Counted from the first letter of the stretch, positions 9,132 through 31,000 are shown. The stretch is DNA of 64,000 nt from an uncultured Elusimicrobia bacterium (GCA_964523525.1 CAZFYO010000003.1:164147-228146); one strand, 5' to 3'. The notes: generated by a model not told the origin, from the letters alone. Made by a program: numbers and translations.

Positions 9132-10517
9132 TCAGGACCACTGGACGCGGTTGCGTCCGGCGTTTTTGGCGGCGTAGAGGGCTTTGTCGGCTTTTTCGAT
9201 GAGCTGTTCGGCCATGGAGGCGTCTTTGGGGAATGTCGCGCCGCCGATGCTGACCGTGATCCGCTCCTCGGGCATCTTATCCTGCCCGGGGAAAACGGCC
9301 TGTTCGATCTGCTTGCGCAGGCGCTCGGCCACGGCTTTGCCGCCTTCGGGCGGCGTTTCCGAAAGGATAATGACAAACTCCTCGCCGCCGTAGCGGGCCA
9401 CCAGGCTGTCCTGGCGGAGGGCTTCCTTCAGCATGTTTGCCATCTGCTTCAGGAGGACGTTGCCCAGGGGGTGGCCGTTGGCGTCGTTGAACTTCTTGAA
9501 GTGGTCGATGTCCAGAATGAGCAGGACAAAAGTATGTTTATAGCGGTGCGACCGCGTGATCTCGTTTTTGATCTGGTTCTGGAAGTAGCGCAGGTTGTAG
9601 AGACCGGTGAGCGAGTCGGTTATGGTTTCGGTGACGAGCCGCTCCTGGTTTTCCTTGAGCTTGGCGATCATCGTGTTGAATTCGTGGGTCAGATAGCCGA
9701 TCTCGTCGCCGCTTTCGACCGGCAATTCGACGTTCAGCTGGCCCGAGGTCACTTTGCGCACGCCCTGAAGGAGGTTCTGCAGCGGCTTCGATATGTTGAA
9801 GGATAGGATGAACCCGACCACGCTCACGGCCAGGAGCACGGCCGCGCCCGACGTCAGCGCGCTCATCTGTGTCGCGAGCAGCGTGTCCTGCATGCTCTTT
9901 TCGGACTCTTCCAGCTTCACGCGAGCGATGTCCACGAGTTTGTCGCAGAGGTAGAAAATGGTGTTCAACCGCGTCTGGCCTTCGCGGGAAATCGTCGAGA
10001 TCTTCTGCTCGCGCTTTTCGATCTTCAGCTCCTGCTTGGCGGTGTCCGCCTTGGAAGGTCCCGTGATCGCCTGTTTGAGCTTGCCGATCATGCCTTTTCC
10101 GGCCGGCGCGACCTCGGGCGGTTTGGATTTGTAGGTGCTCATCAGCGCCTTGTTCTCGCCTTCGTACTCCGACATCTCCTGGCGAATCTGAACGAGGAGG
10201 TCTTTTTCCGTCTCGGTCTGGCTCAGGCTCTGCATCTGCATGATCCACTGCAGGACCGTGTCGCGCGCGGCGGCTTTTTCTTCCAGGAGGCGCGGGTTTT
10301 TGGTGGTCAGATAGCGGAAAGTGAGATTGTCGTAAAGCGCAACGTTATACTTGATGAGCTGGGCCGAGCGCATGGCGGCCATGTTATTGGAAATCATGTC
10401 CTGCATGCGGCGCGTGATCTCCTCCTGCGTCTGCATCAGGTTCCAGATAAACGCGCTCACCAGCACGATGATGGACACCGAGGCCAGGGCGATTTTGGTT
10501 TTTATGCTGAGGTGCAT
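9132..10517 (-). CDS. Sensor diguanylate cyclase: 2 TM helices, periplasmic sensor region, HAMP and a GGDEF domain
   Basis: N-terminal TM, second TM (AAVLLAVSVVGFILSF) followed by a HAMP-like segment. C-terminal GGDEF domain with intact active site RYGGEEF and an upstream RxxD-like I-site region. Confidence 0.85.
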   Translation of the reverse strand: MHLSIKTKIALASVSIIVLVSAFIWNLMQTQEEITRRMQDMISNNMAAMRSAQLIKYNVALYDNLTFRYLTTKNPRLLEEKAAARDTVLQWIMQMQSLSQTETEKDLLVQIRQEMSEYEGENKALMSTYKSKPPEVAPAGKGMIGKLKQAITGPSKADTAKQELKIEKREQKISTISREGQTRLNTIFYLCDKLVDIARVKLEESEKSMQDTLLATQMSALTSGAAVLLAVSVVGFILSFNISKPLQNLLQGVRKVTSGQLNVELPVESGDEIGYLTHEFNTMIAKLKENQERLVTETITDSLTGLYNLRYFQNQIKNEITRSHRYKHTFVLLILDIDHFKKFNDANGHPLGNVLLKQMANMLKEALRQDSLVARYGGEEFVIILSETPPEGGKAVAERLRKQIEQAVFPGQDKMPEERITVSIGGATFPKDASMAEQLIEKADKALYAAKNAGRNRVQWS

Positions 10518-10592
10518 GGGCGTAGCTCCAGCCCTAGTATTGCAGAGGTGCCCTAATTTCTCAAGGATGTTTATTAAGGAAGGTAAAGCGGG

Positions 10593-14858: not shown

Positions 14859-14907
14859 GTTTACAATATGTTTACAATTACGTTACTGATTCGTAAGGAC
14901 TTTTACA
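14859..14907. promoter_or_regulatory. Divergent promoter region between sucC and the YD-repeat gene. Contains two GTTTACAAT direct repeats 11 bp apart (14859-14867, 14870-14878), a third TTTACA (14902-14907), and the inverted repeat TTACG-N9-CGTAA (14878-14896).
   Basis: Read directly from the sequence. Direct repeats at helical-turn spacing are typical of response-regulator or other transcription-factor binding sites. No factor is assigned. Confidence 0.3.
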
Positions 14908-21640: not shown

Positions 21641-23170
21641 ATGTTTCCGTCGCTTTCGCAGTTTTTATCCTGGTCCCAAAAAAGTTCCGTCATTCCTTTT
21701 GTGCTCGAAGCGCCATTTCCCGAGGATGGGGATGGCTTTTCTTTTTTCCTGAACCAATCAGCCCGCCTGCCCTTCGCATTTTTCTTCGACAGCTTTAACG
21801 CCAAACCTCTGGGCCGCTATTCCTATTTTCCGCTCAGCGCCCCGCGGAAACGCATGGTCGCGAAAAATCCGGTCGAGTTCGCGCGCCAATGGAAATGCCT
21901 CCGCGCCGAGATCGGCCAAACACCCTCGCTTTTTTCGTCGATCGTTTCTCCCGGTGCGAGCAATACATCCGCCAAATTGCCTCCGTTTCTAGGCGGCGCG
22001 ATCGTGTTTCTTTCCTACGACGCCGGCCGCGCGTTCGAACCGGGCTGGAAATCGCGCCCGCCCGCGGACCCGCTCCGTTTCCCCTGGCTCGAGGCCGGGC
22101 TCTACGATGATCTTTTCTGCCTCGACCATCGGGCCCGCAAGGCCTATTGGATTTCCTGCGTCCGCCTTTCCGCGAAAAAAAACCGAAGCAAAACCCGGCT
22201 GACGGAGATTTGGCGAAAAAAGGAATCCGAACTCCGCGAGCAATCGCGGAAAATCAGAGGCGGACGGAATGGGGCCGATTTTCATGGATCGACGGAAAAT
22301 CTATTGAAAAATGGGAATAAATTTAATAAAAAAAATGGCGCCGGAGGGGAAGTCGTTGATGCCGGTACGCAAAAGTGGTTTCTGAAATCCGTTTTGAAGC
22401 TGAAAGAGTATATTGCCGCGGGGGATATTTATCAGGCGAACCTGTCGCGGCGGATCGCGGCTCCTTATAAGGGAAGCGGGCTGGACTACTTCGCGGGGCT
22501 GCGGAAGATCAACCCGTCGCCCTACGCCTGCTACGGAAGTTTCGGGTTCGGAGAGCTGGCGAGCTGTTCGCCGGAGCTGCTGCTCAAAAAGCGCGGCCGG
22601 ATCCTGGAGACGCGGCCCATCGCGGGCACACGGCCCCGGGGAAAAGACGCGGCCGCCGACAAGAAACTCCAGGGTGAACTGCTGCTGAGCGCCAAGGAGC
22701 GGGCGGAGCACGTCATGCTGCTCGATCTCGAGCGCAACGATTTGGGGCGCGTCAGCGTCGCGGGATCGGTGCGCGTCAAGGAAAAGATGATCGTTGAAAA
22801 ATATTCGCACGTCATGCATATTGTGTCCTGCGTGCGGAGCCGAATGAAATATAATCAGGATGTGTTCCAGGCGATCGAAGCCGTGTTTCCGGGGGGGACC
22901 ATCACGGGCTGTCCCAAGGTCCGCTGCATGAACATCCTCGACGAACTCGAGCCCGTGAGCCGCGGGCCGTTTTATGGATCGCTCGGGTGGATCGGTTACA
23001 ACGGCGACTGCGAAATGAACCTCCTGATCCGCACCGCGATCCGTCCCAAAAACAAGAACCATCTTCTGATCCAGGCCGGGTCGGGCATTGTGGCCGACAG
23101 CGCCGCGCCGCGCGAGTTTGAGGAATCCGGCCATAAAGCCCGCGCGCTCCTTGCGGCCGCAAAAAGCTAA
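21641..23170 (+). CDS. Chorismate-binding enzyme, aminodeoxychorismate synthase component I / anthranilate synthase component I family (PabB/TrpE-like). Carries an AT-rich Lys-rich insertion.
   Basis: GDIYQANLS, PIAGTRPRG, HVMLLDLERNDLGRV, GGTITGCPKVRCMNILDELEP, GPFYGSLGWIGYNGDCEMNLLIRTA. PabB-like N-terminal region PFVLEAPFPEDGDGFSFF...GRYSYF. Confidence 0.8.
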   Translation: MFPSLSQFLSWSQKSSVIPFVLEAPFPEDGDGFSFFLNQSARLPFAFFFDSFNAKPLGRYSYFPLSAPRKRMVAKNPVEFARQWKCLRAEIGQTPSLFSSIVSPGASNTSAKLPPFLGGAIVFLSYDAGRAFEPGWKSRPPADPLRFPWLEAGLYDDLFCLDHRARKAYWISCVRLSAKKNRSKTRLTEIWRKKESELREQSRKIRGGRNGADFHGSTENLLKNGNKFNKKNGAGGEVVDAGTQKWFLKSVLKLKEYIAAGDIYQANLSRRIAAPYKGSGLDYFAGLRKINPSPYACYGSFGFGELASCSPELLLKKRGRILETRPIAGTRPRGKDAAADKKLQGELLLSAKERAEHVMLLDLERNDLGRVSVAGSVRVKEKMIVEKYSHVMHIVSCVRSRMKYNQDVFQAIEAVFPGGTITGCPKVRCMNILDELEPVSRGPFYGSLGWIGYNGDCEMNLLIRTAIRPKNKNHLLIQAGSGIVADSAAPREFEESGHKARALLAAAKS

Positions 23171-23179
23171 AATCATTCC

Positions 23180-25054
23180 ATGACCGCCCAAAGCCGGGTC
23201 TGGCTCGCGCTCGCCGCCTGCATGGCCCTGTCCTTCCTGATCTACGCACCCTCCATCAAGGCCCCGTTTTTTTTCGACGACGAAACGAATTTTATCGATA
23301 ATCCGGATATCCGGAAGCTGGAGAATCTGAAAACCCGGCTGGTGTTCAAGATGGAAAAGATGGCGCAGAACACCAACGTCCCCACGCGCGCCATAACGTT
23401 CCTGACGTTCACCCTGGAATATGCCCTCTGGGGTAAAAATCCGTCCGGCTACAGGGTCGTCAACATCGCCCTGCACGGCCTGGCGGCATTCCTGCTTTTC
23501 CTCCTGCTAAGGGAAATTCTGGCGCGATGGAATCTGGGCGAATACCTCTTTGGCGTTGCGCTCGCCGGGGCCATGCTTTTTTGCGCCCATCCGATGCAGG
23601 GCGACGCGGTCGCCTACATCAGCAACCGGTCCGACGTGCTCGCGGCCCTGTTTTCCCTGCTGGCGCTGGTCCTCTTTTCGCGCGCGGGTCCGGACCGCGG
23701 CCGGGCGGCGGCCCGTCTCGTCTTCGCGAACTTCGCATTTGCGGCGGCGATTCTTTCCAAAGAGACCGCCGCGACATTCCCTCTGATTCTCCTGGGCTAC
23801 GATTATTTCATCGCCGCGAACAGGGACGGCGCGGCGCTGCGGAATCGCTGGCGGCGCCATGCCCCGTTTTGGGGAACCCTCGCTCTCTATATGATTTATC
23901 GGCGTGCGCTGATGGGCGACTTGATGTACCAATGGGCCCTGCAGGAAGATTCCTGGACGTCAATGGAGTATCTGTCAATGCAGGTGATGGCCATTCCGAA
24001 ATATCTGCGCCTGCTTTTGGCGCCCGTCGGACAATGCATCGACCATATTCTGCTGCCTCCCGATTCCTGGCTGGAGCCCCGGATGCTTGTTGCGTTCGCC
24101 GCCTGGGCCGCGATTCTGGCGCTGGCCGCGTTCCTAATCCGTGGGACGTGGAAAGCAAAATCCACCGCCGCGCTTTTTTCATCCGCCTGTTTTGGGATGT
24201 TGTGGTTTTTCGCGGGGCTGGCACCCAGCTCCAGCGTCTTTCCCATTTTTGACGCTATGGTGGAGCGCCGTGTCTATTGGCCTTCCGGCGGCTGGGTCCT
24301 GGGCGTGCTGGCCTTTTACGCCTGGCTTTTCGACGCGACGGAAAATGGTCCGGTCAATGGCGCGAACCATTCCAAAAAAATAATCGTCTTCCTGTCGGTC
24401 CACACCGCGATCCTCGCCCTTTTCACTTTGCACCGCAGCACGCTGTACGGACATCCCGAACGGCTCTGGATAGAGGCCGTCGCCCGCTACCCCGGGAACC
24501 CGCGGGCTTACGTCAATCTGGGGTCCTATATTGAGAAAAAAAATCCGGCGAAAGCCGTTGAGCTCGGCCGTATGGCACTGAGCCTGAACCCGAAATATGC
24601 CGTGGCCCAGAACAATCTGGGCAACGCGCTTTACGCGCTCAATGACGTGGAAGGCGCCGTGGCTTCCTATCAGAAGGCGATTGAGTTGAAGCCCGGATGG
24701 GTCCAGCCCTACATCAACCTGGCCGGCATGCATTACCACGCCCGCCGGCTGAAGGAAGCCGAGGCAATGTACTTGAAAGCGCTGGCGCTCGAAACAGGGT
24801 ACGCGCTGGTCTATAACAATCTCGGCTCCATCTATTTTGAGAGGGGCGAAACGGAGATGGCGGTGGATTTTTATAACAAGGCGATCGAGACCGACGCCGG
24901 TTACGGGTTGGCCTATTACAATCTGGCTCTGGTTCTGGTTGCCAGGAAGCAATTCGACCTCGCGCTGAAAGCCATGGTGTCCGCACGTGCTCTGTTGCCG
25001 GACAACCCGGCCGTTGAGAACAATTTGCGCGCGCTGCAGGCCATGAAGCCGTGA
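23180..25054 (+). CDS. TMTC/PMT-like GT-C glycosyltransferase (DUF1736-type polytopic N-domain) with C-terminal TPR repeats, paralog 1
   Basis: ~10 TM helices in the N-terminal 420 aa. The loop-1 acidic motif PFFFDDETNFIDNPDI is the DD/DE motif of GT-C PMT/TMTC/ArnT-type enzymes. The C-terminal ~200 aa contains >=5 TPR units (AxxxLGxALxxxGxxxEAxxxYxKAxEL-type). Confidence 0.7.
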   Translation: MTAQSRVWLALAACMALSFLIYAPSIKAPFFFDDETNFIDNPDIRKLENLKTRLVFKMEKMAQNTNVPTRAITFLTFTLEYALWGKNPSGYRVVNIALHGLAAFLLFLLLREILARWNLGEYLFGVALAGAMLFCAHPMQGDAVAYISNRSDVLAALFSLLALVLFSRAGPDRGRAAARLVFANFAFAAAILSKETAATFPLILLGYDYFIAANRDGAALRNRWRRHAPFWGTLALYMIYRRALMGDLMYQWALQEDSWTSMEYLSMQVMAIPKYLRLLLAPVGQCIDHILLPPDSWLEPRMLVAFAAWAAILALAAFLIRGTWKAKSTAALFSSACFGMLWFFAGLAPSSSVFPIFDAMVERRVYWPSGGWVLGVLAFYAWLFDATENGPVNGANHSKKIIVFLSVHTAILALFTLHRSTLYGHPERLWIEAVARYPGNPRAYVNLGSYIEKKNPAKAVELGRMALSLNPKYAVAQNNLGNALYALNDVEGAVASYQKAIELKPGWVQPYINLAGMHYHARRLKEAEAMYLKALALETGYALVYNNLGSIYFERGETEMAVDFYNKAIETDAGYGLAYYNLALVLVARKQFDLALKAMVSARALLPDNPAVENNLRALQAMKP

Positions 25055-26976
25055 CTCGCGGCCCGAATCAAAACCCGAATCAGAACCCGGCTTCCGCGTC
25101 CGGGCGCGCCGGCGGCGTCTCGTTTCTAATGGCGTTCTTCTGCCTGGTCATCCCCATTCTTTTGTACAGCCCCTCACTGCGCGGGCCATTCGTCTTTGAC
25201 GACTTCTCGAATATCGTCGACAATCGCGATATCCGCAGCCCTGACCGCATCGGGATCGGCCTCCTCAATACGCATTTGATCGTAAAAAACCGACAAGCTC
25301 CGACGCGCCCCGTCACGTCCTTGACCTTCGCTCTCAATTACGTCTGGAACGGCTTGAATCCGTTTGGGTACCGCCTATTCAACATACTCGTTCATTCAGC
25401 TAACACGCTTCTCGTGTTTTTGATGACCCTTATGATTCTCCGACGCCTCCAGGATGCCGCGGTGAAGGAATCCCTGGCGTTCGCCATCGCTCTGATATTC
25501 TGCGTCCACCCGCTCCAGACCGAAGCGGTGGCGTACATCAGCCACCGCAGCGACAGCATGGCCACATTTTTTTATCTCCTATCCATGCTCTCGTTCTTTG
25601 CAGGAAGGGACAGGCGCTGGCCATATTCGGTTCTGCCGGCGGCATTTTTCTTCATTCTCGCAGCGGGTTCCAAGGAGTGGACTTACGCCGCGCTTCCCGC
25701 GGCACTGCTTCTGATCGACGTTCTCGTCTTCAGCCGTTCGGAGAAACTGCGGATGTGGCGGCACGCCCCCATCTGGATTCTGGCGGTCATTCTGATCGCC
25801 TCCCGGAAATATCTGACCGGTCGATGGGGCTTTTTGGGGCCTGATCTCGACCGGATTTGGCCGGCCCTCACGTACGCGGGAGTACAGTCGTATGTCTGGT
25901 TGAAATATGCGGCCCTCTGGTTCCTGCCGCTGTGGCAAACGTTTGATCATTATCTGGTCCCAAACGCGCCGGGGTTGGCCCGCAAGATATTTGCGTCCGC
26001 TGCGTTGTGGTCCGCCGCGATCGTTGGAGCGGGATATTGGATCCACAAACTGGGATGGAAAGAATTTTCCGTGAGGGCCGCGCAGTCGGCCTCAGACCCC
26101 CGGCGCAGGCTCCTATGGCTTGGTCTCGGCATGGCCGCGATATTGATCGCTCCCACCTCCAGCATTATTCCGACGTACGAGGCCATGGCGGAGCGCCGCG
26201 TTTACCTTGCGGTCTGGAGCGGCTCTCTGGCCTGGGTTGCCTTTCTGGCGGGACTGATCAAGAATGGGGGGACGTTGAAAGCGGCCCTCGCGGTTCACAT
26301 CATGCTGCTGGCCGCGTTGACGTGGCGCCGAACCGAACTGTACCGATACCCGGAAAAACTATGGGAGGAGGCGATTGAGCGGTACCCTGAAAATGCGGAC
26401 GCGCACCTGAACCTGGGGGTGGTCGAAATGAAAAACGGCCGTCCCGACAAGGCCCTCCACAACTGGCTTCACGCGGTCGAGCTCCGTAAACTGCGAAACC
26501 CTCAGGCGTTCAACAACATAGGAGAAATTTACTTCCAGCGGGGCGAGATACGCAAGGCCCTGGAATATTTCAAGGAGGCCGCCCGGCAGGACCCCCAATT
26601 ACACTACGCCTGGCGCAACATGGGAGACGCCTTCTATGAGCTGGGGGAGGACGCCGCCGCCGAGGAAAGCTATCACCGCGCCCTCGCTCTGGTCCCGGAC
26701 GAACCCGAGCTCTACAACAATCTCGGCCTGGTTTTGGAACGGCGGAAAAATTTTCCCGGGGCCGAAAAAGCCTATCAAAAGGCGATGGAACTGGACCCCG
26801 ATTTTGCGCCGGCCCACGCGCACCTGGCCGAACTTTATGTTCAAACCGAACGGCTCCCGGAGGCGCTGCGCCGGTACGCGCAGTGGCAGGTTTTGGAGCC
26901 CGACAACCCCGAAATTCCCTCCAAAATCGCCCTGCTCCGCCGCTGGATGTCGGATCGGGCTCGCGGCAAAAAATAG
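25051..26976 (+). CDS. TMTC/PMT-like GT-C glycosyltransferase with C-terminal TPR repeats, paralog 2
   Basis: Same architecture as the upstream gene: polytopic N-domain with PFVFDDFSNIVDNRDI and C-terminal TPRs (NLGVVEMKNGRPDKALHNWLHAVEL...NNLGLVLERRKNFPGAEKAYQKAMELDP). Start overlaps the stop of paralog 1 (ATGA). Confidence 0.7.
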   Translation: MTRGPNQNPNQNPASASGRAGGVSFLMAFFCLVIPILLYSPSLRGPFVFDDFSNIVDNRDIRSPDRIGIGLLNTHLIVKNRQAPTRPVTSLTFALNYVWNGLNPFGYRLFNILVHSANTLLVFLMTLMILRRLQDAAVKESLAFAIALIFCVHPLQTEAVAYISHRSDSMATFFYLLSMLSFFAGRDRRWPYSVLPAAFFFILAAGSKEWTYAALPAALLLIDVLVFSRSEKLRMWRHAPIWILAVILIASRKYLTGRWGFLGPDLDRIWPALTYAGVQSYVWLKYAALWFLPLWQTFDHYLVPNAPGLARKIFASAALWSAAIVGAGYWIHKLGWKEFSVRAAQSASDPRRRLLWLGLGMAAILIAPTSSIIPTYEAMAERRVYLAVWSGSLAWVAFLAGLIKNGGTLKAALAVHIMLLAALTWRRTELYRYPEKLWEEAIERYPENADAHLNLGVVEMKNGRPDKALHNWLHAVELRKLRNPQAFNNIGEIYFQRGEIRKALEYFKEAARQDPQLHYAWRNMGDAFYELGEDAAAEESYHRALALVPDEPELYNNLGLVLERRKNFPGAEKAYQKAMELDPDFAPAHAHLAELYVQTERLPEALRRYAQWQVLEPDNPEIPSKIALLRRWMSDRARGKK

Positions 26977-27016
26977 ACCCTCCCAACCGCCCAAAAAAAT
27001 CTCAAAAATTGAAATA

Positions 27017-27058
27017 TTTATCATATTGATAAATAAGCCTGATAGGTGTATTTATCAG
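27017..27058. promoter_or_regulatory. Operator-like element: two inverted repeats made of four TGATA[AG] half-sites. TTTATCA-tat-TGATAAA (27017-27033) and CTGATA-N8-TATCAG (27039-27058).
   Basis: Perfect 7-bp and 6-bp palindromic arms read from the sequence. They sit in an AT-rich island ~30-70 bp upstream of the -35 hexamer of the promoter below. Confidence 0.45.
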
Positions 27059-27085
27059 ATATTTTTCGGAATCCTGACTTGGGCC

Positions 27086-27114
27086 TTGACAAAAAGGGCT
27101 TCGGGGGGTATAAC
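27086..27114 (+). promoter_or_regulatory. Sigma70-type promoter: TTGACA (27086-27091), 17-bp spacer, TATAAC (27109-27114). Predicted TSS is ~27121.
   Basis: Consensus -35, optimal 17-bp spacer, 5/6 match at -10. Preceded by an A-rich UP-like tract. No ORF in the following ~220 nt. Confidence 0.55.
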
Positions 27115-27147
27115 TCTGCCATAGTTCACTGATCTTTCATTGGCTTA

Positions 27148-27268
27148 CACGACAATAGCACACTCCAAGTAATTGGAGGCCGCAAAGCCCTCGCCGCCAG
27201 GCGGGGCCCTCTTAACGTGAAGAGGGTACGGGCCCTGCAAAGCGCAGGGCGGCCGGGTTGCCGAAGCA
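27148..27268 (+). ncRNA. Candidate cyclic-di-GMP-I (GEMM) riboswitch aptamer in the 5' leader of the giant-gene operon
   Basis: Hairpin CUCCA-aguaau-UGGAG followed by CCGCAAAGCC (27181-27190; Vc2 has ACGCAAAGCC). Long-range pairing GCCGCC (27193-27198) / GGCGGC (27248-27253) encloses the internal hairpins CCCUCUU-aacgug-AAGAGGG. 3' element GCGGCCGGGUUGCCGAAG (27248-27266; Vc2 has GCGGGGUUACCGA). A second GCAAAGC lies at 27237-27243. The match is to the GEMM consensus as remembered, not computed. Confidence 0.4.
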
Positions 27269-27292
27269 AGTCCAAAACCTCTTGAGAACAGG

Positions 27293-27339
27293 AGCTGGAT
27301 TTTCTGCGGCAAAGCGCCCGGGAAAAACCAGCTTTTTTT
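27293..27339 (+). terminator. Putative intrinsic terminator / riboswitch expression platform. Stem AGCUGG (27293-27298) / CCAGCU (27328-27333) followed by U7 (27333-27339), directly abutting the ATG at 27340.
   Basis: Complementary 6-nt arms plus a T7 tract read from the sequence. The loop is long (29 nt) and contains a third GCAAAGC (27309-27315) that could take part in an alternative anti-terminator pairing. Confidence 0.35.
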
Positions 27340-27867
27340 ATGAAACACCACAACCTGACCCTCGAGATTAAAAAGCGCGCGATGGCCGTTCTGGCCGGAG
27401 CGGCTTTTTGCCTTTCCTTCATCGCCGTTTCCCATGCCGCCGATCCCGCCTCCTCCAAAGCATACTGGACTAATTTCCTGAACGATGGGTTGAGCGACCA
27501 GTCGCTCGACGTGCGGGACTCCGCCAACCGGCCGGTCTCCGGGCGGGTCCAAAAGGACTCCTTCAAACAGCTGTTCATCCTTACTGTTTTCCGTTTTGCC
27601 GACACCGAATTTTCTCCCGGATTGAGCCGCCTCCGCAGGATGCTTGCGGACGCCATTAACCCTCTGGCCCAGAAACTGCGGGCCGCGGCCGGACACATTT
27701 GGCAATGCGCCGAGAGTTTCGCGCTGAACCTCAACAAGCAGATCCACCGCCTCGTCCGCTTTGTCCCCTTGGGCGCGGGGGATTCTCCCGGCGGGATCAT
27801 CTCCCGGGATTCCGGCCTCTCGATTTCGTTTCAAACCGCACAATCCAACCTGCCTCTCCGCTGCTAA
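27340..27867 (+). CDS. Hypothetical small secreted protein (175 aa) immediately upstream of the giant gene
   Basis: Signal-peptide-like segment MAVLAGAAFCLSFIAVSHAADP. The true start may be the internal Met at ~27382. No recognisable domain and no obvious SD, so it is uncertain. Confidence 0.35.
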   Translation: MKHHNLTLEIKKRAMAVLAGAAFCLSFIAVSHAADPASSKAYWTNFLNDGLSDQSLDVRDSANRPVSGRVQKDSFKQLFILTVFRFADTEFSPGLSRLRRMLADAINPLAQKLRAAAGHIWQCAESFALNLNKQIHRLVRFVPLGAGDSPGGIISRDSGLSISFQTAQSNLPLRC

Positions 27868-27998
27868 TCCGCCCGCTCGCCTAGAGCGTTTCTCCCCTTG
27901 GGGAAGCGCGCACGTCTCCGAACACCGGCCGCCAACCGTCTGATTGATTGTTTTATCGCCATTGCTCCGCCCGTTTTTTGAAAGGCACAGTTTCGTTT

Positions 27999-28024
27999 TA
28001 CGCGCGCACGCGCGTGCGCGTACG
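27999..28024. repeat. 26-nt perfectly alternating pyrimidine-purine, near-palindromic tract TACGCGCGCACGCGCGTGCGCGTACG ~40 nt upstream of the giant-gene start
   Basis: Read directly from the sequence. Potential Z-DNA-forming segment or a stable ~10-bp RNA hairpin (one A-C mismatch) in the inter-cistronic region. Confidence 0.3.
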
Positions 28025-28064
28025 AGGAATCGACGGAAAAAAGGAGCCTGAACCACTCGAAACC

Positions 28065-31000
28065 ATGAGCATCGCAAGCGTGAAGAAATTCTTCAGAACC
28101 AGCCTCGCCCTCCTCGGAGCGGCGAGCCTGGTCTTGCTTGCGCGCACCACCTGGACCGCCGACACCTACTGGCCGAACGCCAACATCGGCACCGACCCCG
28201 AGCTGTGGCACGGTGAGACGGCGTTCTCGCTCAATGGTCAGACCAACCTCTTCGATTTCGCGAACTCCACAACTCGGCAGATGGCCGTATCGTTCACGGC
28301 GCCGACGCTCTCCACGATGACCCTGCAGGAAGTCCTGCTCCCCTGGTCTCAGTCCAACACGAACCAGACCCAGACCGTGCGCGTCCGTGTCGCAGACGAT
28401 GATAACGGCGATCCGAGCGGCGTGTACATCGCGACCGGAACCCTGGTGATCGTGAACGAACCCAACACCGGAAAATGGCGCAGTTTTGATATGACGGGCG
28501 GCGGCCCCGCGCCGACGCTGTCCGCCGGGTCCGTTTACCATCTCGTCATCGATAAAACAGTGGGAGGCCGTAATACGGTACAGGGTATTCCGGTCCGCAG
28601 ATCCATTGCCACTGCGCTCAATGATCCTTCGGCATTGAAGCGCGTGGTTTCCACGGCTACCGCGGCGACGCCGAACCTGGCCATGAACGTCAGCACGCGC
28701 GGCGCCACCAACGAAGCCTGGATGCCTCAGGACGCGGAACCCACCTTCCTGGTGAAGTTCGGCGTCACGCTTCCCAACCTGTTCTATTGGGGCAACCCCT
28801 ATCCCAGTCTCAGCGATAACACCAACAACGGCGCCCCCGCTGGACAGTTCAACGACTACTCACCCCGCATCAACCAGGCGTTGTACAAGTCCATCCTGCT
28901 GAGGTCTTCGGCCGGCGGGGGAACGAAAAAATTAAGCCGCCTCAACGTGCTGGTCGGCAAGGACACCACCACGCCCGCGGAGTCCCTGAAGATTTCGATT
29001 GAACGGACCGATACCTACGAGATGGTCGTTCCCACTGTTACCTTCGTACGCGGAACGGATTTTGCATCGGTGGACGAAGTCGTGTGGAAAACCATCAATC
29101 TGGCCAGCAACTCCGTAGTCTTAGCGGAAGGCGTCCCCTACCGCATCAAATTTTTCTCGCCAAATTCGGGAAATAATTTGGGTTACCGGCTCTACATTCA
29201 TGCGGCTTGCGATGCCGGCGGCGTGGAATGTAACCTGGACACGGTCTACTCGGAGGCCACGTTCGATGGAGACAATACCGCGATCGAAGAGTCGTCGGAC
29301 AGCGGCGTCACCTGGACACCGAATTACGGCGCCGACATAAACTTCCAGATGCGGTTCGACAACGACGTTCCGCTGATGGCCATCACCCAGCCGGCGCAGA
29401 ACGACGAATGGAACTCGATTCCCGTGATTTCCGGAACCGCTGAGGACCAGGACAAGACTGATCACGCTCTGAGCTCGCGCACCGTGGAAGTTCATATCAA
29501 GAACATTACTAACGGTTCCAATGAAGAGTGGAGCGGGACGGCCTGGGCCCCGCCGACCGGAGCCGATACGGACAACTGGAATTCCACGGGAGCCATATCC
29601 TATACCAACGGATTCAATACCCACAATTGGGACTACCGCATCCCAGCGGCAAACTGGACGCCCCAGGCCAAATACAATGTGCGCGCCCGCGCCTACGACG
29701 CGGTGCGAAACGTCTCCACCGTTTACTCCACAACTTTCACCTACAGCCCGTATCGAGGCTCACCGGAAGCGCCCGATTCCCTCCTGACCAGCATCGTGGA
29801 TAAATCGACGGTTGCAGTGGTCAATGGACTGATCGGTACGGCGAACGACGTCAATCCTCTGACTGATATTTTGGGCAACGGATTCACGGGCGTTTCCAAC
29901 GTCAAAGTGTACGTCAAGGACACGGATTCCAACGTCTGGTGGAACAGCGGCGCGTCCACCTTCTCCTCTACCGTGGAAACGTCGCTGTTCGCGTCCTTCA
30001 ATTCGCAAAATCCCGGCGGAAATTACGACTGGCAGATCACCGCGATCGGAAACCTGAATTTCATTCATGGCAAGCGGTACGCCGTCTATACGCGCGCCAT
30101 CGATAACAGCAACGTCTCGATAGCGACCGGCGTGGTGGAAAACCTGATCAGCACAATCACGTTCCGCGTGGACCGCGCAACTCCGACCGCGGCGATCACC
30201 CAGCCGGCGCATCAGGGTTCCGCTCCCTCGGCCATTATCATCAGCGGTACCGCCGTGGACTCTGTCTCCGGAGTTCAGCGGGTGGAGTATATGATCCAGG
30301 ACCTGAGCGGATCCAACCCCGGTTTCTACCTTAATAGCGCGGGCAACGGCTGGTCGATTTCCGAACCGTCCGATTGGCCCGACGCCGACATGGGCGTGCA
30401 GTTTTCCACCTGGTCCGCCGCTCCCGGAACGACCTTGACCAGCGGCGATTACGTGGTTCGCGCGCGCGTCTACGACATCGTGGGCAACAACACGGCCGGG
30501 ACTTACTCGCTTACGGTTACATCCATCACTGTAACGGTCGACAATACCCCGCCCACGTCCGCCGTGACAGTTCCGACGCACACTTACGTGGGCGCATTCA
30601 CGGCGATCAGCGGAACCGCCAACGATAATGCGAACCTCAACACCGGCGCCCAGATCAACCTCACGGTCTATCAGTCAACTTCTGGAAATTTCTGGTATGA
30701 CCCGGACGGCGATGGGGCCATCGTCGGCCGGTGGAGAAACGTTCTTTCTTCCATTACAATTACCAGCGTTCCGAATTCTCCGAGCTGGAACTGGACCTAT
30801 ACTCCTCCCGCGCACATGTTCCGGACGGGCGGCACCTACGTTTTATGCTCGACGGCCACCGACACGTCCACCAACCGCCAGACCGGCGGGAACGTGGTCT
30901 ATACGGTACAGTACGACACGCAGACTCCCGTCGCCCAATTCCAGAAGCCCGAGTTCGGGCTGGGCTGGATCCGGAGCCTGCCGACCATCTCCGGAACAAG

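Follow-up and report, generated by a model that had tools for sequence, protein, structure and literature searches.

The window, by which we mean the whole stretch of 64,000 nucleotides that was analyzed, has a GC content of about 60%. On its plus strand, an operon encoding a DUF1015 protein, a chorismate-binding enzyme and two TPR proteins ends at position 26976 with the gene for a 641-aa TPR protein (25051-26976), which is identified by Pfam TPR matches and has a 70%-identical orthologue on L003, a contig from a relative described below. This operon is co-directional with the genes that follow, from which it is separated by a 363-nt intergenic region. An AT-rich island lies in the upstream part of this region, followed by a promoter, a c-di-GMP-I riboswitch aptamer and a terminator-type expression platform. 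We found no ORF on either strand that is conserved in the window and L003 across the island.

The riboswitch that an initial annotation of this DNA had named is recovered by RF01051 at 27147-27265 (plus strand), with 37.7 bits against a gathering score of 35. Runs of 20 to 24 nt in the aptamer core are identical in L003, and the L003 aptamer reaches only 20.2 bits against the same model because it carries an insertion of ~70 nt in the first hairpin (L003 7384-7453, corresponding to about 27164 in the window), the remainder being nearly identical to the window aptamer. The expression platform occupies 27294-27339 (plus strand) and was called from its inverted repeat, sequence and fold; its arms, GCTGGATTTTC and GAAAAACCAGC, are followed by a T7 run that ends at the ATG of a small ORF. 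In the ligand-free minimum-energy fold of 27252-27339, the 3′-strand of the aptamer pairs with 27306-27320 and sequesters the 5′-arm of the terminator. The predicted fold suggests that c-di-GMP binding would release the terminator, which would make this an OFF switch. A HAMP-GGDEF diguanylate cyclase is encoded on the minus strand at 9135-10592, which places it 17 kb before the riboswitch.

The first gene of the downstream operon is the small ORF (27340-27867, plus strand), which encodes 175 aa with a signal-peptide-like N terminus and corresponds to a homologue with 56% identity that occupies the equivalent position in L003. After it comes the main regulated gene, a giant ORF (28065-64000, plus strand) that extends over more than 11,970 codons and runs off the window. 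The reading frame is free of stop codons from 27948 to 63998 and has an ATG at 28065 with a ribosome-binding site, in agreement with the giant gene of the initial annotation. Its Pfam content is limited to a Big_13 match at 3.6e-7 and two weaker matches, both above 1e-3. The N-terminal 700 aa are 83% identical in L003 while identity at four-fold degenerate sites is 0.50, from which it follows that the giant ORF is truly coding and under selection. An alternating CG tract with an imperfect GC hairpin, TACGCGCGCACGCGCGTGCGCGTA (27999-28026; about 8335-8360 in L003), lies ~40 nt before the giant ATG, in the interval that separates it from the small ORF. A 26-nt run of this tract is identical in L003 and L004 despite the saturated neutral divergence, and it may represent an RNA hairpin or a Z-DNA-prone element.

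Comparison with a relative

All of the comparative evidence comes from one independent relative, L003, a comparison that carries no covariation or turnover information. A search with the small ORF identified a single homologue (56% identity), present on the Logan contigs L003 and L004. L003 spans 10.5 kb with the gene order of the window, and L004 is short and starts at about the -35 element. A search with the TPR gene yielded one further orthologue, on a contig that stops 20 nt past the stop codon; the N terminus of the giant protein had no match in the protein database, the GTDB representative genomes or the JGI metagenomes, and a 22-nt DNA pattern from the leader had none in metagenome contigs. 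The lineage is rarely sampled. Across five flanking genes, the window and L003 share 46% identity at four-fold degenerate sites (0.46, n = 989) and 56 to 83% identity at the amino-acid level. Because the neutral sites are saturated, the single comparison to L003 is informative, and all P values given below were computed against the 46% neutral identity. At its very start (positions 1-10), L004 (SRR33394500) opens 10 nt before the -35 with GTTTCTCCCC, where L003 has AATTTGGCC. This start resembles 27890-27902 of the window and is probably a contig-end artefact.

The core promoter

A TTGACA hexamer at 27086-27091 and a TATAAC hexamer at 27109-27114, both on the plus strand and separated by a 17-nt spacer, lie exactly where they had been annotated. 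The -35 matches the consensus at all six positions and is the same in L003 and L004, in both of which the -10 reads TATATA. A sigma-70 promoter requires a spacer of 17 ± 1 nt, and the length is 17 nt in the window, L003 and L004. Searching the 64 kb for TTGACA-N17-TATAAY with up to one mismatch returned this site and no other, against 0.08 matches expected. The -10 has the A at position 2 and lacks the T at position 6, which is one of the two best-conserved positions of this hexamer, in the window (TATAAC, 5/6) as well as in L003 (TATATA, 4/6). Without that T, TATAAC is passed over by the promoter scan. The last base of the -10, non-canonical in both lineages, is the sole blemish on the promoter call.

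Divergence from L003 is unevenly distributed over these elements. The -35 is unchanged (6/6, P = 0.0095), the spacer at 27092-27108 retains 14 of 17 positions at unchanged length (P = 0.0024), the -10 differs at two positions (4/6, P = 0.27), and the leader at 27115-27146 retains 26 of 35 alignment columns (P = 6e-4). From the promoter geometry we infer that transcription starts at the A at 27121, 7 nt past the -10 hexamer; in the L003 alignment, the conserved block TCTGCCATAGTT spans this position. The -10 hexamer is separated from the riboswitch aptamer by 33 nt. The call is sound because a perfect -35, a fixed 17-nt spacer, a retained TATA and a riboswitch 33 nt downstream all coincide. As judged from sequence, the retention of the -35, the spacer length and the TATA at saturated divergence supports a functional sigma-70-type promoter, and the promoter of the initial annotation is upheld to this extent.

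Three other readings of the region were rejected. A second promoter within the island (TTGATA-17-TATTTA) is not kept in L003. As to an invertible promoter, the 9-mer has no copy downstream of the promoter, and the flanks offer no inverted repeat other than an A-run facing a T-run. At 27141-27159, TGGC...AGCA has the wrong spacing for a sigma-54 promoter.

The AT-rich island and its palindromes

Upstream of the promoter, an AT-rich island (20% GC) carries TTTATCAtatTGATAAA and CTGATAggtgtattTATCAG, and every sequence named in the initial annotation is present at its coordinates. The island had been described as 40 bp long and is larger than that: 60-nt windows with a GC content of 30% or less cover 26967-27080, and their minimum of 20% is the lowest in the 64 kb. 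Palindrome 1 has as its core TTTATCA (27017-27023), TAT and TGATAAA (27027-27033), and is longer than had been noted, forming a perfect 9+3+9 21-mer, TATTTATCA-TAT-TGATAAATA, at 27015-27035. The centers of its half-sites (TTTATCA and TGATAAA) are 10 bp apart, or one helical turn, and the TPR stop codon lies 39 nt before it. Palindrome 2 consists of CTGATA (27039-27044), 8 nt and TATCAG (27053-27058); its arms are 6 bp long, the centers of its half-sites are 14 bp apart, and their orientation is opposite to that in palindrome 1. A third exact copy of TATTTATCA sits within palindrome 2 at 27049-27057, so there is more than one way to pair the four half-sites. The two palindromes also share a 12-mer direct repeat (11/12), formed by the left arm of palindrome 1 and the right arm of palindrome 2, and a chance origin of this repeat is unlikely.

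A fourth TATTTATCA, at 22426, was set aside as coding sequence for GDIYQ, a conserved motif in the chorismate-binding enzyme. The ORF of the same enzyme contains a 23% GC island at 22273-22341, in a segment that is 31 to 38% identical to L003, and this island may be a variable linker or an insertion.

The arrangement upstream of the promoter is far from random. When the island itself was shuffled 5000 times with its dinucleotide composition preserved, four or more TGATA/TATCA half-sites arose in 0.04% of the shuffles, three copies of one 9-mer in 0.36% and inverted repeats whose arms reach at least 9 bp in 2.3%. Four half-sites in 45 nt form the densest cluster in the window, where the mean is 1.08 per kb. 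Since shuffles of the island rarely produce such repeats and conservation in L003 is far above the neutral level, chance can be excluded.

Selective conservation upstream of the promoter

Conservation with L003 rises and falls in blocks between the TPR stop codon and the -35. The first 16 nt past the stop (26977-26992) are at the neutral level, with 8 identities of 16. The following segment (26993-27014), made up of an A7 and an A5 tract ~10-11 bp apart and a TTGAA, directly flanks palindrome 1 and is conserved (19/22, P = 1e-4); the phased A-tracts are probably an intrinsic bend or an extension of a protein-binding site. Palindrome 1, a putative dimer-binding site, is identical at all 21 positions (P = 8e-8), and the 35-nt block that holds it (27003-27037) at 34 of 35 (P = 7e-11). 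Identity then drops to the neutral level across palindrome 2 (27039-27058), of which 10 of 20 positions are retained and which is thus lineage specific and outside the conserved element. It recovers in the block that leads up to the -35 (27059-27085, plus strand; 22/27, P = 2e-4), which contains GATATTTT, a T-run resembling an UP element, and the odd palindrome GGAATCC at 27068-27074. The GGAATCC is located at about -50 and is the same in L003; it could serve as another protein site or be contacted by the alpha subunit of RNA polymerase.

The distance from the center of palindrome 1 to the center of the -35 is 63.5 bp in both the window and L003, about six helical turns, and there are no indels between the two elements even though a 21-nt linker within this interval is at neutral identity. 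The conservation of palindrome 1 matches that of the riboswitch core, where the longest identical runs measure 20-24 nt. The initial annotation took both palindromes to be sites for a transcription factor and held that uniqueness in the genome together with a lack of conservation in relatives would speak against this. For palindrome 1 the proposal survives the comparison, with P of ~8e-8 as evidence of selection; for palindrome 2, at neutral identity, it finds no support. Judged by base identity with L003, palindrome 1 is under strong purifying selection.

Searches for the cognate factor

The absence of a dedicated factor from the window, as annotated, is borne out by Pfam, which detects no DNA-binding or transcription-factor domain in any window ORF. 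A second palindrome 1 site occurs neither in the 64-kb window nor in the 10 kb of L003, and because the site is single in both, they lend no support to a regulon. We scored twenty known consensus sequences against shuffled sequence, and none of them (Fur, PerR, Zur, tetO, lambda, IHF, Fis, CRP, FNR, DnaA, ArgR, dif and others) beat the shuffles at the palindrome. The Fur-family 7-1-7 box, TGATAAT-N-ATTATCA or its PerR/Zur variants, was rejected at 10/14 for Fur (21% of shuffles) and 11/14 for PerR (11% of shuffles). The Bacillus Zur box, the sole nominal outlier, was likewise rejected: 2% of shuffles reach its score of 14/20, the match is displaced relative to the palindrome, and it would fail correction for 20 motifs.

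Scanning the GTDB representative genomes for TATTTATCA-N3-TGATAAATA returned at least 119 loci. As base composition predicts, almost all of them come from unrelated genomes rich in AT, and among the matches listed none had a related context. Of the listed matches, the few from GC-rich genomes fall in a coding region (L072), just after pcm (L015) and, at ~460 nt from a MarR-like gene, in an AT island (L119). Methylophilaceae carry a conserved extended palindrome in the interval between pssA and leuA, where no adjacent gene encodes a regulator. BLAST searches of the region against plasmid and phage collections gave chance matches only.

Discussion

The arrangement upstream of the giant gene is best read as a sigma-70-type promoter with a single upstream dimer site, palindrome 1, in the position of an upstream activator or modulator, with palindrome 2 as a lineage-specific feature; we assign this reading a probability of roughly one half. 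The dyad symmetry of palindrome 1 and the spacing of its half-sites by about one turn are those of a site for a helix-turn-helix dimer, and its sequence conservation indicates that it probably binds a regulatory protein. The center of the palindrome, at 27025, lies at about -96 from the predicted start and, because the two elements are ~63 bp apart, on the helical face of the -35. Under this reading, 26977-27339 would be the control region of an operon in which the promoter is followed by the c-di-GMP-I riboswitch, the gene for a small secreted protein and the giant gene, and transcription would proceed from the TTGACA/17/TATAAC promoter with a start near 27121. A conserved 45-bp module about 63 bp upstream of the -35 would comprise the two phased A-tracts and the 21-bp palindrome, the latter most likely bound by one helix-turn-helix-type dimer encoded elsewhere in the genome. 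From its placement, we infer that the bound protein would activate or modulate the recruitment of RNA polymerase from upstream. Repression, either distal or by looping, and a roadblock to read-through from the upstream operon would be less likely alternatives, and promoter occlusion would not be the expected mode. Palindrome 2 would belong to the variable linker and serve at most as an auxiliary half-site. It could supply an additional half-site or form a weak hairpin, and the auxiliary half-site may have been gained in the window lineage by local duplication or lost in L003.

The initial annotation had proposed a double operator for a dedicated transcription factor, which we took as two dimers of one repressor that occupy four TGATA half-sites and shut off the promoter, acting jointly with the riboswitch. 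Four half-sites in 40 bp, as seen in 0.04% of shuffles, would be accounted for by such an arrangement, and so would the extra copy of the recognition 9-mer in the window lineage, with its 11/12 repeat between the right arm of palindrome 2 and the left arm of palindrome 1. However, half of the positions in palindrome 2 differ in L003, as at neutral sites, which leaves the second operator unsupported, and the half-sites are not four equivalents: palindrome 1 reads TATCA-N3-TGATA and palindrome 2 TGATA-N8-TATCA, and because orientation is opposite and spacing differs (N3 versus N8), a single dimer could not read both alike in one binding mode. Nor does the location suit an occluding repressor, since the sites (27015-27058) are centered at about -96 and -72 and end before the -35 begins at 27086; lying ~35 to 75 bp upstream of it, they leave the core promoter clear, with no overlap of the -35, the -10 or the start. 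We regard the double operator as quite unlikely and replace the four-half-site repressor operator with a single upstream dimer site.

Two further explanations were weighed, and we consider each of them unlikely. The island could act at the RNA level as the 3′-end of the TPR operon, its hairpins and U-run forming an AU-rich terminator or 3′-end stabilizer that insulates the promoter. It begins ~20 nt past the TPR stop codon, the scan called no canonical terminator between that codon and the promoter, and palindrome 1 would also form an AU hairpin in any transcript reading through from the upstream operon. In the window, a hairpin (27027-27057, or palindrome 2 alone) precedes GAUAUUUUU, and L003 has a different small hairpin, AAGUUCG-auuaa-CGAAUUU, at the same place before the same conserved U-rich stretch; pairing of the A-run with the U-run around palindrome 1 in L003 reaches -20.2 kcal/mol (z = -3.1). 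Palindrome 2 as RNA gives a 7-bp hairpin of -6.2 kcal/mol (z = -1.4), with a U5 run at 27062-27066. Yet the stems are nearly all A-U in a genome of 60% GC, the hairpins at the U-run are weak (-6.2 and -4.0 kcal/mol, with 20 of 200 and 47 of 200 shuffles folding equally well), and the predicted structures differ between the window and L003. In a terminator stem, compensatory substitutions would be expected to accumulate, whereas palindrome 1 is unchanged at saturated divergence, and the riboswitch's own terminator nearby is conventional, with G-C pairs and a T7. An architectural role would have curved AT-rich DNA (UP-like, or bent by A-tracts) or a site for an abundant nucleoid protein boost a strong promoter, with the palindrome incidental. 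The two phased A-tracts and the T-run are indeed conserved, and the island, which has the highest AT content in the window, lies a short way before a near-consensus -35; but composition or curvature alone would not fix 21 of 21 positions while the adjoining AT-rich linker drifts to neutrality, and the best IHF and Fis matches are no better than in shuffled sequence.

The preferred reading, a single dimer site upstream of a sigma-70-type promoter, has counterparts in characterized systems. Class I activators at sigma-70 promoters bind upstream of the -35, as in the case of CRP, whose sites are centered from -61.5 to -92.5. Palindrome 1 resembles these in being one dyad-symmetric dimer site upstream of the -35 with its helical face fixed (63.5 bp in both lineages), and differs in that it has no sequence relationship to the CRP box (a non-significant 7/10) and that its center near -96 stands at the distal extreme of class I positions. 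The tetO operator of TetR, ACTCTATCATTGATAGAGT, has a 1-nt spacer and overlaps its own promoter. It shares with palindrome 1 the TATCA...TGATA half-sites in the same relative orientation and is read by a helix-turn-helix dimer; the spacer here is 3 nt rather than 1 nt, the match of 12/19 is not significant, and the window site lies off the promoter. At Vibrio cholerae tfoY, transcription factors act at the promoters and the c-di-GMP-I riboswitch Vc2 is located in the leader. The locus described here similarly combines a leader c-di-GMP-I riboswitch with presumptive regulation at the promoter, and differs in that the gene it serves is a giant one, coding for more than 11,900 aa, and that the lineage is uncultured. 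Vc2 is reported to be an off-switch (bioRxiv 10.1101/617340). Another report describes Bc3-5 of Bacillus thuringiensis, a tandem c-di-GMP riboswitch before a collagen-adhesin gene (PMC4759541). Here the likeness consists in a c-di-GMP-I riboswitch in the 5′-leader of a gene for a large secreted or surface protein, and the differences are the one aptamer here, the other phylogenetic context and the extra conserved DNA palindrome upstream.

The closest resemblance in sequence is to the box of the TetR-family regulators LuxR/HapR/SmcR of Vibrio, 5′-TTATTGATAAATTTATCAATAA-3′, a 9-4-9 palindrome (PMC8034623). The window sequence TATTGATAAA (27024-27033) equals the left half-site of that box. The order of the halves is TTTATCA-N3-TGATAAA in the window and TGATAAA-TTTATCA in the LuxR box, and the organism is unrelated; because the halves stand in inverted order, the likeness is a resemblance only. 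Membership in the LuxR/HapR group (TTATTGATA-N4-TATCAATAA) was rejected for the inverted half-site order and the differing spacing. In its working, the arrangement resembles a leader riboswitch joined to a class I-type upstream site at a sigma-70 promoter; it is a new instance and no new kind of system, and outside this lineage the architecture is routine.

Control in two layers, at the promoter region and through the riboswitch, as put forward in the initial annotation, is plausible. A bolder version would have a c-di-GMP-responsive factor at the 21-bp palindrome, so that the giant surface protein is gated twice, at initiation and at the riboswitch terminator; we hold this to be very improbable, and if true, it would mean that one second messenger acts at two steps on an orphan protein of more than 11,900 aa. 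Within this lineage, the analysis defines the promoter, together with a single upstream element under strong selection, of an operon with one of the largest bacterial ORFs, and the 21-bp sequence TATTTATCATATTGATAAATA provides a bait for finding the regulator of this operon in the MAG.

Elsewhere in the window, GTTTACAAT occurs twice at 14859-14878 as a direct repeat with an 11-bp period, in a divergent intergenic region of 37% GC between a succinyl-CoA ligase operon on the minus strand and an RHS-repeat ORF on the plus strand. The repeat resembles either a tandem site of the response-regulator type or a set of overlapping -10 elements.
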